Notes under the pieces: generated by a model
Databases searched by the model: none
Seen by the model: only the letters and a program-made list of their open reading frames with translations
What the model was told of the DNA's origin: nothing
NCBI GenBank assembly: GCA_001004005.1
Contig: LCQF01000006.1
Coordinates: forward strand, 1-49,232
Origin: Parcubacteria group bacterium GW2011_GWA2_49_9
GTDB taxonomy: Bacteria > Patescibacteriota > Minisyncoccia > Phycocordibacterales > UBA10002
DNA length: 49,232 nt
Direction of reading: 5' to 3'
Shown: positions 6,410-49,118 of the stretch, piece by piece
Layout: each line of letters opens with the position of its first letter
How positions within the stretch are numbered: position 1 is the stretch's first letter
Made by a program: the position numbers and the translations under genes

Positions 6410-8215
6410 ATGTTACCGCGATTTTCTTTAATTCTCACCGGACAGGCAAGAGTCCACGTTGTGGCGCTGGTATGCGCTTTGTGTGTAGGCGTACTGTATG
6501 TAGCCCCGTACGTTTTCTTCAGAGTTTCGGCAGGTGATGCATATCGGAGAATACCGATGATGCAAAGTACGAATGAGGACGAGTACCTGATGCGCATACA
6601 GGAGATTATTGACGGACATCCGTCTCTCGGCTCGCCGGTCTTCTATGAATACAAAAGTGAACCCCCTCTGTCGCCTCCGGTTGGCGAATTTCTGTACGCG
6701 CTTCCGACTCTCATGCTCGGGATATCGCCCATTACGACGCTTGTCGCAAGTAAGTTTTTCCTGCCCGCACTCCTGTTTCTTTTAGTGTATCTTCTTGCGT
6801 GGCGGCTTTCTGGGGCCGAAAACGGTGTCGTAAGCAAGCTCTCCGCTCTTGCGGCGGCATTCTTCGTAACGCTCGGATACGACCTTATCGATTACAGAAC
6901 TGTTTGGAATTTTCTCACAGGTGCAGCTTCTCCCGGAAGTTTTTTGCTCTGGTCAAGGCCGGTGAATCCAATTCTCGGCGCACTTTTCCTGTTTTCTTTT
7001 TTACTTCCTCTCCACGCTCTTGTTGAAGGAACAAAGTGGCGCAAGACTGTCATAGCTCTCGCCGCCGTGTTCCTCGCCTGTATGTTCGGGAGCTATTTTT
7101 TCAGCTGGGGTATTGCGGTTTCAATTCTCGCTATACTAGTGCTCTTTCTTCTTATACGCAAAGAGTATCGAACCGCCGGTACGCTTGCCCTTGTGGTGCC
7201 GGCCGGTATGTTGTGCGCCTTGCCGTATTTCATAGCCATATGGCGCGCGGCGCAAAGTCCCTGGTATGAAACTTCAGTTCTCCGAAGCGGGCTATTTCTG
7301 ACGCACTATCCGCTTTGGAATAAGCTTCTGCTCGTCTCGCTCTTCTTTTTTGCAGTTACAGTCGCGTGTGATTTCTTTCTGAAGAAAAGGAAAAAAATTA
7401 TATTTCGTCTTGAATCGTGGCATTGGTTCTGTTTCTCGTTGCTTCTTGGCGGACTCTGGGTGTATATACAGCAACTATTTACGGGCAGAACAATTTGGCC
7501 GTATCATTTTGTGCAGTATACGATTCCGCTGTCCATAGTGGTCGGAATGACCGTTGTGGAGCGAAGTATCCGGCAGTACAGTCGGTATCTCTACTTCGTA
7601 CTCATATCGATTATCATCCTTTCCTCCGTTACTTTCGGAATATATACACAGGTGAGCGTCTATGCGCAGTTTCGCCCCTATTACGTCGAGTTACAACGTT
7701 ATGGAGCGTTATTTACCTTACTGAACGCACAAGAGAGCGACTGTGTCGTCTTGCAGACAAGTATGGAGGAACATACAGGTCTTGACCATCTGATTCCGGC
7801 CTTTACGCACTGCAATTTGTATGACTCGTCCTCCGTATACTCGCTTCTTCCCGAAGAGCGTATTTTACACAACTATCTGGTGCGCCTGTATTTTAGAGGC
7901 GTTAGTCCGGATACCATAGAGGAGTTTCTTCAAAGTCCCGATTCCGAAGCGCGGGGCTATCTCTCGTCAAACTGGAAAGGAGTGTTCGGGGTTACGGACT
8001 TTCCCGATTTTTCCGACCCACTTTTTGAGAAACGATTACAGGAATTCCCAGAGCAGTATAGAGCGTTTGCGCGAAAAGACTTCGAAACGGAACTTCGGAA
8101 GTATCGCTTGGACTATATTCTCGTTAAGGGCGAGCCGTCAGCAAACGCGCGGAAGTTACTTCAATTAAAGAAAGTGCTGTATGTGGACAAAGATGTGAGC
8201 GTGTATCAATTTTAG
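6410..8215 (+). CDS. Large polytopic membrane protein of unknown function with a C-terminal soluble domain (possible glycan polymerase or lipid-linked-sugar glycosyltransferase)
   Basis: About 12 hydrophobic segments over the first ~430 aa, then a hydrophilic ~170 aa tail. The ATG at 6410 overlaps the upstream stop (6407). I recognise no diagnostic motif. Confidence 0.6.
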   Translation: MLPRFSLILTGQARVHVVALVCALCVGVLYVAPYVFFRVSAGDAYRRIPMMQSTNEDEYLMRIQEIIDGHPSLGSPVFYEYKSEPPLSPPVGEFLYALPTLMLGISPITTLVASKFFLPALLFLLVYLLAWRLSGAENGVVSKLSALAAAFFVTLGYDLIDYRTVWNFLTGAASPGSFLLWSRPVNPILGALFLFSFLLPLHALVEGTKWRKTVIALAAVFLACMFGSYFFSWGIAVSILAILVLFLLIRKEYRTAGTLALVVPAGMLCALPYFIAIWRAAQSPWYETSVLRSGLFLTHYPLWNKLLLVSLFFFAVTVACDFFLKKRKKIIFRLESWHWFCFSLLLGGLWVYIQQLFTGRTIWPYHFVQYTIPLSIVVGMTVVERSIRQYSRYLYFVLISIIILSSVTFGIYTQVSVYAQFRPYYVELQRYGALFTLLNAQESDCVVLQTSMEEHTGLDHLIPAFTHCNLYDSSSVYSLLPEERILHNYLVRLYFRGVSPDTIEEFLQSPDSEARGYLSSNWKGVFGVTDFPDFSDPLFEKRLQEFPEQYRAFARKDFETELRKYRLDYILVKGEPSANARKLLQLKKVLYVDKDVSVYQF

Positions 8216-41823: not shown

Positions 41824-41864
41824 GACGAGGCTCAACCTCAACCACGACGAGGTTGAGCCTCGTC
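41824..41864. repeat. Perfect 16-bp-stem hairpin at the 3' flank of the RAYT-like gene
   Basis: 'gacgaggctcaacctc-aaccacgac-gaggttgagcctcgtc'. The transposase stop codon lies inside it. Confidence 0.8.
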
Positions 41865-42539
41865 AGCGTATCGGAGCCAGTCAGAAATCTCCCGATTAAA
41901 AGTTGTCTTCTCTGGAAAGTAACCGGGGAACTCTTTTTGGTTGAGAAGTTTAGAAAATTGCCGACTGATGCCGAGATAATCGAAGTAACTTGAATAAGGA
42001 TATTCTGCCAGATATTGTTTCGCTCTCCTCCTGTCTCTAATGCCGTTCTCTTTCCATTTCGGTTCAATGATTTTTACAGGATTAAGGTGAATATATGAAA
42101 ATAGATAGCGCAAATAGGTATCGGTTTTTGCGTGCTTCGCTTTGAACCTTCCTTGAAAAAGCACCCCGTCTCTTTTTCGTCCGATGTTAAAGTACATAGT
42201 ATACGCGGTGGAAAGGCGGTGCATAAAAGCGCTAATGCCGTTTTCCGTGGTTTCGCGTACTAGGAGGTGGAAGTGATTTGGCATAAGACAATATGCGCCG
42301 ATGGCTATGATAGGGGAGTCCATCTTTTCACCGAGCGCGGACTTGATAAGCTCAAGCGAAGTCTCATCTTTCCATGCGGGCAGTCGGTCAAAACGAAAAG
42401 GAGCTTTTCCGTTGCATAGATACAGTAGAAGCATGAACCGTTTTCGGTCCGAATCATTCTCAAAGACAGGTCTTCTCTCAACCCCGCGATTGTAGAGGTG
42501 ATAGTACTCTCCTTCGGCAAATTGTATTTTGCGTGACAT
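41838..42539 (-). mobile_element. IS200/IS605-superfamily Y1 (HUH) transposase, REP-associated tyrosine transposase (RAYT)-like
   Basis: 'YYHLYNRGVERRPVF', the HUH motif in 'YCLMPNHFHLLV', and the catalytic-Tyr region 'RYLFSYIHLNPVK'; 233 aa. Confidence 0.85.
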
Positions 42540-42570
42540 GGTCTGTTAAGCATAACACAACAACAAAATT

Positions 42571-42600
42571 GACGAGGCTCAACCTCGTCACAACCTCGTC
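42571..42600. repeat. Hairpin repeat at the 5' flank of the RAYT-like gene, sharing a 16-mer with 41824-41839
   Basis: 'gacgaggctcaacctcgtcacaacctcgtc'. The first 16 nt are identical and in direct orientation to the other flank; 'gacgagg/cctcgtc' forms a 7-bp stem. Confidence 0.75.
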
Positions 42601-42624
42601 AAGACGAACCATAGAAACGCCTTG

Positions 42625-43525: not shown

Positions 43526-44839
43526 ATGCATATTCAGGAACATATTTCTCTTAAAGAACTGACGACGATGAAAATCGGGGGAGACGCCCGCTATTTTTGT
43601 TCTGCCTCGACTGCCGAAGCTTTGGCGGAGGCGGTTTTGTTTGCTCGCGAAAAGAATGTGCCCGTTATTGTGCTTGGTGGAGGTTCCAACACGCTTGTCG
43701 CGAGTGGTGATATTAACGCGCTGGTTCTGAAAATTGAAATCAAGGGGGTTGAGTGGGAATCTCCCTTAGGAAAGTGGAATAGTCGTAGACGAGGAGCACT
43801 CCGACGTGGCGTCGGGGGAGGGTTGTTACAACCCCCGGCGCATCGGAATGCGTCCACCCCCTTTAGTAAGGGGGATTCCGTTCCGGTCGTTGTCGGCGCC
43901 GGTGAGAGCTGGGACGGCTTTGTCGCGCAAGCTGTTGAGAAAGGATTGTGGGGTATTGAAAATCTTTCCGGTATTCCCGGCACCGTAGGCGCCGCCCCTA
44001 TCCAAAATATCGGTGCGTATGGAACGGAAGTCAAAGATACGATTCTGTGGGTAGAGGTGTTTGATATCAAGGCGGGGAAGCTCCGGCGGCTTACAAACGC
44101 CGAATGCCGGTTCGCGTACCGCGACAGTATGTTTAAGCATCAGGTGGAAGGACCGTTCATCGTCTGCCGTGTGGCTTTTCTCCTCCGGAAAGATGGCGTT
44201 CCTAATTTGGAATATAAAGATTTACAAAAATATTTCGGGAATCTTTCCTCCCCTCCTTTCCAAGGTGAGAAGCGAATACTTGGAGCTTCGCAAGACCTTG
44301 AGCGTCCGTCTTCGGACGCGAAAGGTGTACAGCTTCGGTACGAAGGGGATAAGAGGGGTGGTAGTTTTCCTTCTCTCCAGCAAATCCGCAACGCTGTTAT
44401 TGAAATCCGTTCCGGGAAATTCCCCGACCTGCGGGAATTTGGTACCGCCGGTTCATTCTTCAAAAATCCGATTATCTCAAAGAAACAGTTTGATGAATTG
44501 AAAGAGAGATACCCGAATCTTCCAGGATTTCCTCTTAGCCTCTCCCCCTCTTTAGAGGGGGAGATTGAGAGGTGGTGCACCCCACCCACCCTCCCCTCTA
44601 AAGAGGGGAGGAGGGAAGAAAAGGTGAAAATCCCGCTTGCGTGGGTACTCGACAATATTTGCAATCTTAAAGGTTTCAAAAAAGGAAATGTCGCCTTGTT
44701 TGAGAAACAGCCGATTGTGCTCGTGCACAGCGGAGAGGCGACCTCGGAAGAAATTGAATTGTTCGCGAAAGAAATTGCGGACATCGTAAAAGTAAAAACC
44801 GGAATTGAAATTGAGTGGGAGGTGCAAAGAATATTTTAA
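43526..44839 (+). CDS. murB: UDP-N-acetylenolpyruvoylglucosamine reductase, enlarged by three in-frame repeat-derived insertions
   Basis: 'LTTMKIGGDARYF', 'VLGGGSNTLV', 'VVVGAGESWD', 'GIENLSGIPGTVGAAPIQNIGAYG.EV', 'C.FAYRDS.FK', 'GSFFKNP', 'IPLAWVLD..G.KG...G...L.EKQPIVLV'. It is 437 aa versus ~300 aa typical. Confidence 0.9.
   Translation: MHIQEHISLKELTTMKIGGDARYFCSASTAEALAEAVLFAREKNVPVIVLGGGSNTLVASGDINALVLKIEIKGVEWESPLGKWNSRRRGALRRGVGGGLLQPPAHRNASTPFSKGDSVPVVVGAGESWDGFVAQAVEKGLWGIENLSGIPGTVGAAPIQNIGAYGTEVKDTILWVEVFDIKAGKLRRLTNAECRFAYRDSMFKHQVEGPFIVCRVAFLLRKDGVPNLEYKDLQKYFGNLSSPPFQGEKRILGASQDLERPSSDAKGVQLRYEGDKRGGSFPSLQQIRNAVIEIRSGKFPDLREFGTAGSFFKNPIISKKQFDELKERYPNLPGFPLSLSPSLEGEIERWCTPPTLPSKEGRREEKVKIPLAWVLDNICNLKGFKKGNVALFEKQPIVLVHSGEATSEEIELFAKEIADIVKVKTGIEIEWEVQRIF
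43760..43879. repeat. Palindromic-element copy inside murB (reverse orientation relative to 34156-34301), in-frame
   Basis: 43832-43874 matches the reverse complement of 34179-34221 at 40/43. The flanking modules 'tctcccttaggaaag' and 'gcactccgacg..cgtcggggg' are co-linear with the reverse complement of 34222-34275. Confidence 0.8.
44247..44361. repeat. Second hairpin-rich insertion inside murB, in-frame (boundaries approximate)
   Basis: Bounded by the inverted 'cctcccctc' / 'gaggggtgg'. It contains 'gcgtccg-tctt-cggacgc' and encodes 'LSSPPFQGEKRILGASQDLERPSSDAKGVQLRYEGDKRGGSFP', which has no counterpart in the MurB fold as I know it. Confidence 0.55.
44540..44612. repeat. Third insertion inside murB: two G/C-homopolymer hairpins, in-frame (boundaries approximate)
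   Basis: 'ctccccctctttagagggggag' and 'cctcccctctaaagaggggagg', encoding 'LSPSLEGEIERWCTPPTLPSKEGRRE'. Confidence 0.6.
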
Positions 44840-49084: not shown

Positions 49085-49118
49085 GTTATGCTGTTATTCT
49101 TGAGAATAACAGCATAAC
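49085..49118. promoter_or_regulatory. Perfect 15/16-bp hairpin ending immediately before the maf-like start codon
   Basis: 'gttatgctgttattc-ttga-gaataacagcataac' directly abuts the ATG at 49119. Confidence 0.6.

Follow-up and report, generated by a model that had tools for sequence, protein, structure and literature searches.

Why should a gene for a transposase-like nuclease sit alone among housekeeping genes with copies of one short hairpin on either side? This question is raised by a 233-aa open reading frame (ORF) in a 49,232-nucleotide stretch of contig LCQF01000006.1 from Parcubacteria group bacterium GW2011_GWA2_49_9 (the whole stretch is called the window below). The original prediction, made from the letters of the window alone, had taken the product for a tyrosine transposase associated with repetitive extragenic palindromic (REP) sequences, that is, a RAYT. 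Among transposases that were domesticated along with miniature DNA partners, the REP/RAYT systems have been studied best, and the descriptions come mostly from Proteobacteria and other large-genome bacteria. We find the RAYT/REP reading largely supported, as right in kind and atypical in form: with moderate confidence, we favor a REPtron- or TIRtron-like locus in which cognate hairpins stand on both sides of a single-domain HUH/Y1 gene that has been domesticated and is passed on vertically.

The Y1 nuclease and its flanking hairpins

Its sequence shows the protein to be an intact member of the HUH/Y1 class in which the RAYTs fall. The HUH ('HFH') and Tyr ('SYIHLNP') motifs named in the original prediction are both present, as NHFH at residues 88-91 (H89, H91) and YIHLNP at residues 149-154 (Y149), the latter reading SYIHLNP in the ORF translation, together with FQ (128-129) and SS (183-184). 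The catalytic residues also hold on alignment: H89, H91, Y149, N153, P154, S183 and S184 are invariant in 28 homologues, as are the Y, L, N and P of the class 2 Tyr motif Y-x-x-x-N-P (here Y149-I-H-L-N-P). Y1_Tnp, at 36.5 bits (cut-off 23) over residues 57-151, was the only Pfam family found; the same scan detected no Bac_DnaA_C or helix-turn-helix (HTH) domain in the C-terminus, which is helical in the AlphaFold2 (AF2) model and has no family match. The single NCBIfam match, below the family cut-off, was the RAYT equivalog NF047646 (REP-associated tyrosine transposase), and no IS200 model was matched in that scan.

Structure comparison was needed to place the fold, as a sequence-based search of the PDB gave marginal matches at best (4ER8, E = 0.37). 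The AF2 model built from the 28-homologue alignment is confident (pLDDT 87.6), and its top structural match is 4ER8, the E. coli TnpA_REP with a REP hairpin (E 1.8e-6, TM-score 0.69 on the target), followed by the TnpA proteins of IS608, IS200 and ISDra2. A database search returned >7,900 homologues, and an exhaustive search put the number of clusters (50% identity) at 333 for E<=1e-30 and at 6,549 for E<=1e-10. The closest homologues are all in metagenome bins of Patescibacteria/Parcubacteria (Taylorbacteria, Yonathbacteria and Minisyncoccota).

The DNA around the gene had been described as carrying an identical 16-mer in direct orientation on both sides. These positions are confirmed (Table 1), since GACGAGGCTCAACCTC lies at 41824-41839(+) and 42571-42586(+), and also at 41849-41864(-), with 0.34 matches expected by chance and none of 100 shuffles reaching the observed count (5 matches). 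The repeat is captured more sharply by a perfect 20-nt inverted repeat, the strongest one present, which brackets the ORF (41846-41865, GACGAGGTTGAGCCTCGTCA, against 42570-42589, TGACGAGGCTCAACCTCGTC) and has no counterpart in 100 shuffles. Each arm can fold on its own, into an 8-bp stem with a 5-nt loop, and this near-palindromic makeup is why the inverted repeat also reads as a direct one.

The upstream unit lies 31 nt 5′ of the ATG and 35 nt past the stop codon of the preceding membrane-protein gene, and ATTTTGTTG comes next on the gene strand, giving a terminator-like arrangement. Together with a small adjoining stem, it folds as single-stranded DNA (ssDNA) at -10.4 kcal/mol (z = -5.4). 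On this side, for which a 7-bp stem plus an extra 'cctcgtc' had been noted, the unit has its 8-bp stem and 5-nt loop and is followed by an exact 11-nt duplication; half-unit duplications of this type also adjoin hairpin copies in L161, L141 and L126.

On the 3′ side, the predicted perfect 16-bp stem that takes in the stop codon is borne out. The doublet at 41824-41864 forms this stem around a 9-nt loop, with an ssDNA fold of -19.9 kcal/mol (z = -9.5), and encodes the final ~8 codons (DEAQPRRG) and the stop codon, which is the complement of 41838-41840. It occupies the 27-nt gap between two convergent genes, one of them the Wzy/TPR gene, whose stop is 14 nt from the degenerate unit, and it could act as a terminator for both. 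Searches of the region with Rfam models and for tRNAs returned nothing.

Table 1. Coordinates and sequences of the Y1 gene, its hairpins and related copies
Feature	Locus	Position	Strand	Details
Y1 nuclease gene	window	41838..42539	(-)	233 aa, HUH/Y1 (TnpA_Y1 class 2); ORF call, family matches, alignment, AF2 model
Upstream hairpin unit TGACGAGGCTCAACCTCGTCA	window	42570..42590		8-bp stem, 5-nt loop; right arm of 20-bp inverted repeat
11-nt tandem duplicate of hairpin 3′ half, CAACCTCGTCA	window	42591..42601		exact; CAACCTCGTCA twice spans 42580-42601
Downstream hairpin unit CGACGAGGTTGAGCCTCGTCA	window	41845..41865		inverted relative to upstream unit; left arm; within last ORF codons
Second, degenerate unit GACGAGGCTCAACCTCAACCA	window	41824..41844		pairs with 41849-41864; holds stop codon; REPIN-like doublet
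Flanking hairpin	window			GACGAGG-CTCAA-CCTCGTC
Flanking hairpin	L172			GACGAGG-CTTAG-CCTCGTC
Flanking hairpin	L163			GAGGAGG-CTCAA-CCTCCTC
Flanking hairpin	L167			GGCGAAACC-TTAA-GGTTTCGCC
Flanking hairpin	L170			GGCTAAACC-TTAA-GGTTTAGCC
Flanking hairpin	L169			CCGTGAAGG-ACTGA-CCTTCACGG
Flanking hairpin	L010			ATACAAAGG-TCGAA-CCTTTGTAT
Flanking hairpin	L176			TCGCAAGG-TTCGA-CCTTGCGA
Flanking hairpin	L178			long palindrome
Internal copy	L169	10162-10184		matches flanking hairpin 23/23 nt
Internal copy	L176	10167-10185		matches flanking hairpin 19/19 nt
Internal copy	L163	10170-10186		matches flanking hairpin 16/17 nt
Internal copy	L174	7863-7881		matches flanking hairpin 17/19 nt
Orphan copy	L170			exact copy in 34-nt rplU/recR junction, 4 kb from Y1 gene
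Orphan copies	L169			at two other gene ends
Orphan copy	L174			doublet 4.5 kb from Y1 gene
Orphan copies	L129			window-type doublet at truB 3′ end and related doublet in frame inside truB
Hairpin copies	L126 and start of L102			no Y1 gene

Homologous loci, inheritance and dispersed copies

The claim that the gene is flanked by its own repeats was examined by comparison with 11 homologous genes, picked by the length of their contigs and without regard to their flanks. All 11 are hairpin-flanked, with copies 15-60 nt 5′ of the start and at or across the stop codon, and the hairpin sequence is alike on both sides of a locus and different between lineages (Table 1). For 11 of 12 genes, the window's included, an exact k-mer of at least 11 nt (17-29 nt in most cases) occurs both in the stop region and in the 100 nt upstream, the twelfth having its downstream hairpin copies slightly further inside the ORF; among background pairs of windows from the same loci, 3.7% share at least 10 nt. 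Stem changes are compensatory, as in GACGAGG/CCTCGTC versus GAGGAGG/CCTCCTC and GGCGAAACC/GGTTTCGCC versus GGCTAAACC/GGTTTAGCC, and a tip of the form R-AGG-N5-CCT-Y is common to most lineages. The orthologue in L076, whose protein differs by 13%, keeps the full 41-nt 3′ doublet with one loop change. L174 has two paralogues, separated by 4 kb, and each comes with a hairpin of its own (GAAGG-CTAAG-CCTTC doublets for one and ATCGAGG-TTGAA-CCTCGAT for the other), following the rule for RAYTs that every gene has one repeat family. We also considered the rule that every locus carries a direct-oriented hairpin pair, as IS200 ends do; it held in the first six loci and failed in L176.

The Y1 gene itself contains an in-frame copy of its own flanking hairpin in four lineages, at about residues 54-64, in the insert before strand 2 (Table 1). 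This internal copy encodes the family motif K/Q/R-G-x-T-S/L/F. The gene in the window shows either no such copy or a decayed one, the corresponding segment in the window clade being AWKDETSLEL. Sequence agreement among the 5′, internal and 3′ copies suggests that they undergo concerted evolution.

The single-copy context that had been predicted stands: there is one Y1 gene in the window, tnpB is absent from every locus examined, and all neighbors are housekeeping genes. The identical protein, in the same gene order, occurs in 5 samples (the window is a Rifle groundwater scaffold), and relatives at 75-87% identity (L161, L172 and L076) have that convergent Wzy/TPR gene beside them as well. Five lineages whose proteins are 53-64% identical to the window protein have the Y1 gene beside gap (GAPDH) and the rpiB-rpe-tkt cluster (L163, L166-L168, L170/L171, L176 and the P0103 contig), a position whose conservation runs deep for a 'transposase'. 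Where identity between Y1 proteins is 75-77%, the neighboring Wzy/TPR proteins are just 55-57% identical; the Y1 gene is therefore inherited vertically and under stronger constraint than its neighbor. Such a pattern is that of a domesticated gene and not of an insertion sequence (IS). GC skew is positive over nearly the whole window, which probably makes the + strand the leading-strand sequence, with the Y1 gene transcribed against replication; we made no use of this in the argument.

Hairpin copies away from the gene exist in related genomes (Table 1), at about 4 orphan sites per ~190 kb over 10 genomes, which scales, very roughly, to some tens of sites in a genome of Mb size. This density is close to the Bertels group 1 figure and to the 'moderately abundant' terminal inverted repeat (TIR) families of Di Nocera. 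The original prediction that the enzyme may mobilize a REP family in this genome is partly supported, with orphans in related genomes and no other copy in the 49-kb window, where the instance itself shows gene-flanking copies only. Dispersal in the window genome is probably low or absent; a REP family there, if there is any, would be low-copy. The original prediction had set against itself a 16-mer confined to this place together with a tnpB-containing IS: the 16-mer is indeed local in the window, and none of the loci is an IS200/IS605 element.

In the 1.1-kb Patescibacteria contig L129, which has no Y1 gene on it, the truB gene carries an in-frame doublet at 575-620 (GGGTAAGGCTCAACCTT...AAGGTTGAGCCTTACCC, encoding GKAQP..KVEP), and its frame ends inside a window-type GACGAGG doublet at 780-840 (...TDEAQPQP*).

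For wider searches, the 16-mer was too short: a scan of a genome collection (596 Gb) gave at least 120 matches, mostly chance matches in unrelated high-GC genomes, the informative ones being L010, L076 and L102, with L107 in passing. A metagenome scan with a 19-mer gave 35 matches, mostly coding-region coincidences or an unrelated nested hairpin of one study. In many contigs of that study (L127, L128, L131, L133-L138, L140, L148, L150, L153 and L154; GC 46-50%, no Y1 gene nearby), the 19-mer caps a longer nested hairpin, GACGTCGAGGC-C-CGACGAGGCTCAACCTCGTCG-A-GCCTCGAC. Another observation concerns two different Patescibacteria contigs, L107 (2583-2601) and L121 (123-141), in which the 19-nt unit stands at the same place in homologous genes with its loop inverted (TTGAG versus CTCAA); this could reflect a hairpin flip or two independent insertions.

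Known systems and competing explanations

REPtrons (E. coli YafM, 4ER8; the RAYTs of Pseudomonas and Stenotrophomonas; subclasses 2.2, 2.4, 2.5, 2.7 and 2.8 of Quentin et al.) have the same single-domain HUH/Y1 fold and Y-x-x-x-N-P motif, and they too are single-copy, vertically inherited genes without tnpB, bracketed by cognate palindromes that often form inverted doublets. Paralogue-specific palindrome families and orphans at gene 3′ ends and in frame inside genes are likewise shared with them, and palindrome copies inside the nuclease gene itself are a likeness to subclass 2.4 (PMC6006769). Unlike REPtrons, the system described here has no GT[AG]G foot 5′ of its hairpins, has an apparently very low copy number (none in the 49-kb window beyond the gene), and encodes a protein that misses the NCBIfam RAYT cut-off and is enlarged by an insert of ~30 aa ahead of strand 2 and by ~75 aa at the C-terminus. 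The tip R-AGG-N5-CCT-Y is shared across lineages here, whereas classical REPs are species-specific, and the hosts are Patescibacteria with genomes of ~1 Mb, whereas class 2 genes are reported to favor large genomes (PMC6006769).

Placed by motifs and length, the protein appears closest to TIRYT/subclass 2.1 rather than to the classical REP-associated groups: the signature NH[YF]H, FQ, Y[IV]HLNP, SS is the same, and the length is ~238 aa there and 233 aa here (signature and length from Table 1 of Quentin et al., PMC6006769). Subclass 2.1 is Bertels group 1 and, according to Quentin et al., probably corresponds to Di Nocera's 'TIRYT' (PMC6006769, PMC3733652). As in TIRtrons, there is a C-terminal extension, and the flanking inverted repeats can overlap the gene ends, the 3′ arm lying inside the ORF here. 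Some TIRtron repeats are self-complementary and form only moderately abundant families (PMC3733652), and the 16-mers flanking RAYT group 1 genes are slightly enriched genome-wide, with ~12 occurrences (PMC5581495). Unlike a TIRYT, the window protein has just 27% identity, over its full length, to a typical 2.1-like proteobacterial member, a Skermanella plasmid protein that lacks the ~30-aa insert of the Patescibacteria family, and it has no Bac_DnaA_C/HTH domain, which is present in many 2.1 members. The TIR motif GGGGWSAS, sought by reading the sequence of the window repeat units, is absent from them, and the long TIRs of TIRtrons are replaced by short hairpins (8-bp stem, 5-nt loop). In addition, REP-like structures are regular here, whereas subclass 2.1 has none according to Quentin et al. 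(PMC6006769). Our literature search found no report of such systems in Patescibacteria.

Two other identities were considered and rejected. IS200 (subclass 1.1) is likewise a ~700-770 bp unit with one Y1 ORF and hairpins near both ends; its upstream hairpin is also placed to block read-through, and by analogy recognition of ssDNA hairpins and HUH/Tyr chemistry would be expected in both. However, its protein is ~150 aa with DH[VI]H and Y-x-x-x-Q, against 233 aa with NHFH and YIHLNP here, and the multiple near-identical copies and variable insertion sites of IS200 were not seen. An IS200/IS605 identity was therefore set aside for its wrong catalytic motifs, the single copy in the window, the synteny and the lack of tnpB. 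The CGTC-tagged REPs of Di Nocera, which have no known transposase, are similar short palindromes (8-9-bp stems, 4-5-nt loops), and the window unit ends in CGTC; however, their tag is unpaired and terminal, their stems start with A/T pairs, and they have a CCA tail, whereas the CGTC here is paired with GACG in the stem and is CCTC in a related lineage, so the likeness is coincidental.

Under the REPtron/TIRtron-like reading, the mechanism can be outlined from the studied TnpA_REP (PMC3479197, PMC8266576), with E. coli TnpA_REP and the TnpA of IS608 and ISDra2 as analogues. The protein would bind the folded hairpin on ssDNA, as on the lagging-strand template, probably recognizing it through the conserved tip R-AGG-N5-CCT-Y, and would cleave beside it through Tyr149 with a metal ion bound by His89 and His91. 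Rejoining of the strands might occasionally copy or move hairpin units or doublets to new sites, and the same activity would keep the flanking copies, and in some lineages the intragenic ones, identical within a genome. The flanking copies probably serve the host as well, the upstream unit being placed to terminate the preceding gene, and in the homologous loci standing at the -35 position of the promoter of the Y1 gene, and the downstream doublet being placed to terminate the two convergent genes.

Several findings weigh against this reading. In the studied RAYTs, a GT[AG]G foot guides cleavage; beside our aligned hairpin copies we found neither this foot (GTAG/GTGG) nor another conserved tetranucleotide, which the original prediction had suggested looking for 5′ of the hairpins. 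What the copies share is just the T·A pair that closes the stem and, frequently, TG on the 5′ side. The window protein, at 44.6 bits, falls short of the NCBIfam RAYT cut-off of 80, as do three further family members at 38-43 bits (NF047646). No further copy of GACGAGGCTCAACCTC occurs in the 49,232 bases even at 3 mismatches, nor does any orphan copy of the hairpin with 2-3 mismatches; the orphan density in related genomes is far below that of classical REPs, and the relevant matches of the 19-mer metagenome scan were few Patescibacteria-like contigs (L126, L129 and L141, with L121 in passing). On the gene strand, a terminator scan accepts both window hairpins, and an (extended) -10 box directly adjoins the upstream hairpin in most homologous loci. 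Finally, subclass 2.1/TIRYT has been reported to lack REPs or to have terminal inverted repeats alone (PMC6006769, PMC3733652). The description of the protein as RAYT-like holds for its fold, nearest to 4ER8, its Y-x-x-x-N-P motif and its cognate hairpins, and not for the NCBIfam cut-off, the GT[AG]G foot or the motif group.

Some of these findings are what one would expect if a domesticated Y1 protein were surrounded by hairpins that are solely cis-regulatory or structural for their own locus and are not mobilized. The upstream hairpin would then be an autoregulatory operator at the promoter and the flanks terminators, and the protein would have its job elsewhere, for example on hairpinned ssDNA that needs processing in replication or repair. 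The position of the hairpins would be explained by a regulatory role alone as well. The -10 boxes that follow the upstream hairpin within a few bases in L161, L172, L010, L169, L163 and L167 are TGATATACT, TGTTATACT, TGTTATAAT, TGATATAAT and TATAAT; as the hairpin stands directly before the -10 box, it therefore occupies the -35 position of the Y1 promoter in these homologous loci, which leaves room for autoregulation. In the window, 42540-42570 offers only a weak TATGCT as a -10 box. The terminator-scan results, the lack of orphans in the window and the unusual conservation and synteny of the gene in very small genomes fit this explanation as well. Even so, we consider it unlikely, as orphans identical to flanking copies lie kilobases away and in frame inside unrelated genes (truB), homogenization within genomes alongside divergence between them needs some copying process, and paralogues have distinct hairpins.

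Much less probable is that the 766-bp hairpin-to-hairpin unit (41824-42589) is a minimal autonomous IS200-like IS that still transposes whole. Its size and layout are IS200-like, with one tnpA-like ORF of ~700 bp and hairpins at both ends, its fold is related to the TnpA of IS200 and IS608, and some genomes have two family members. However, the unit is single-copy in the window, synteny is kept down to 75% protein identity with the gene more conserved than its neighbor, and the L174 pair are diverged paralogues with different hairpins and not IS copies. The motifs Y-x-x-x-N-P and NHFH also differ from the IS200-class Y-x-x-x-Q and DH[VI]H (PMC6006769, Table 1), and orphan hairpins without the gene exist. 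The last alternative treats the hairpins as ordinary intrinsic terminators that are alike by chance or local duplication and unrelated to the enzyme; their terminator-like scores on the gene strand and the place of each at a gene end speak for it. The comparative data effectively refute it, given the 20-bp identity absent from 100 shuffles, the upstream/downstream identity in 11/12 genes against 3.7% of background pairs, hairpin sequences that track the paralogue, in-frame intragenic copies and weak T-tracts.

Other palindromes in the window and meaning of the Y1 locus

Palindromes of other kinds were seen in the window. The unusually long murB ORF (43526..44839, 437 aa) contains two in-frame G/C-rich palindromes, TCTCCCCCTCTTTAGAGGGGGAGA and CCTCCCCTCTAAAGAGGGGAGG, 26 nt apart (44541-44564 and 44590-44611), with a looser one upstream at 43855-43878, and similar CCTCC/CTCCC...GGAGG/GGGAG palindromes lie at 1139-1157 and 1216-1234. 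These may represent a second family of small palindromic inserts inside genes. A perfect palindrome with a 15-bp stem at 49085-49118, GTTATGCTGTTATTC-TTGA-GAATAACAGCATAAC, is unrelated in sequence to the Y1 hairpins.

What is new at the Y1 locus is a Patescibacteria-wide, divergent RAYT/TIRYT branch that has short hairpins of its own, in few copies. In genomes this reduced, the conservation of the gene beyond that of its neighbors suggests a function needed by the host. As a speculative extension, in which we place little confidence, the Y1 protein and its hairpins could be a phylum-wide, host-adopted ssDNA-processing module of Patescibacteria rather than a repeat-spreading parasite. All members would then read the tip R-AGG-N5-CCT-Y, the enzyme would keep the 5′, 3′ and in-frame intragenic copies identical through concerted evolution, the intragenic one encoding a conserved loop of the protein in several lineages, and the main role of the module in these minimal genomes would be autoregulation or the handling of hairpins in replication or repair.

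For the family as a whole, the finding adds a phylum in which mobile elements are very few to those known to have such systems. With more than 300 clusters (50% identity) among close relatives, hosts of ~1 Mb, and hairpins that are lineage-specific and compensated on both sides of the gene, the loci form a natural covariation data set on how Y1 enzymes read hairpins, and the 21-nt hairpins with their known variants are simple biochemical substrates. The most valuable part is the comparative set, with its compensated stems, paralogue-specific hairpins and in-frame copies.

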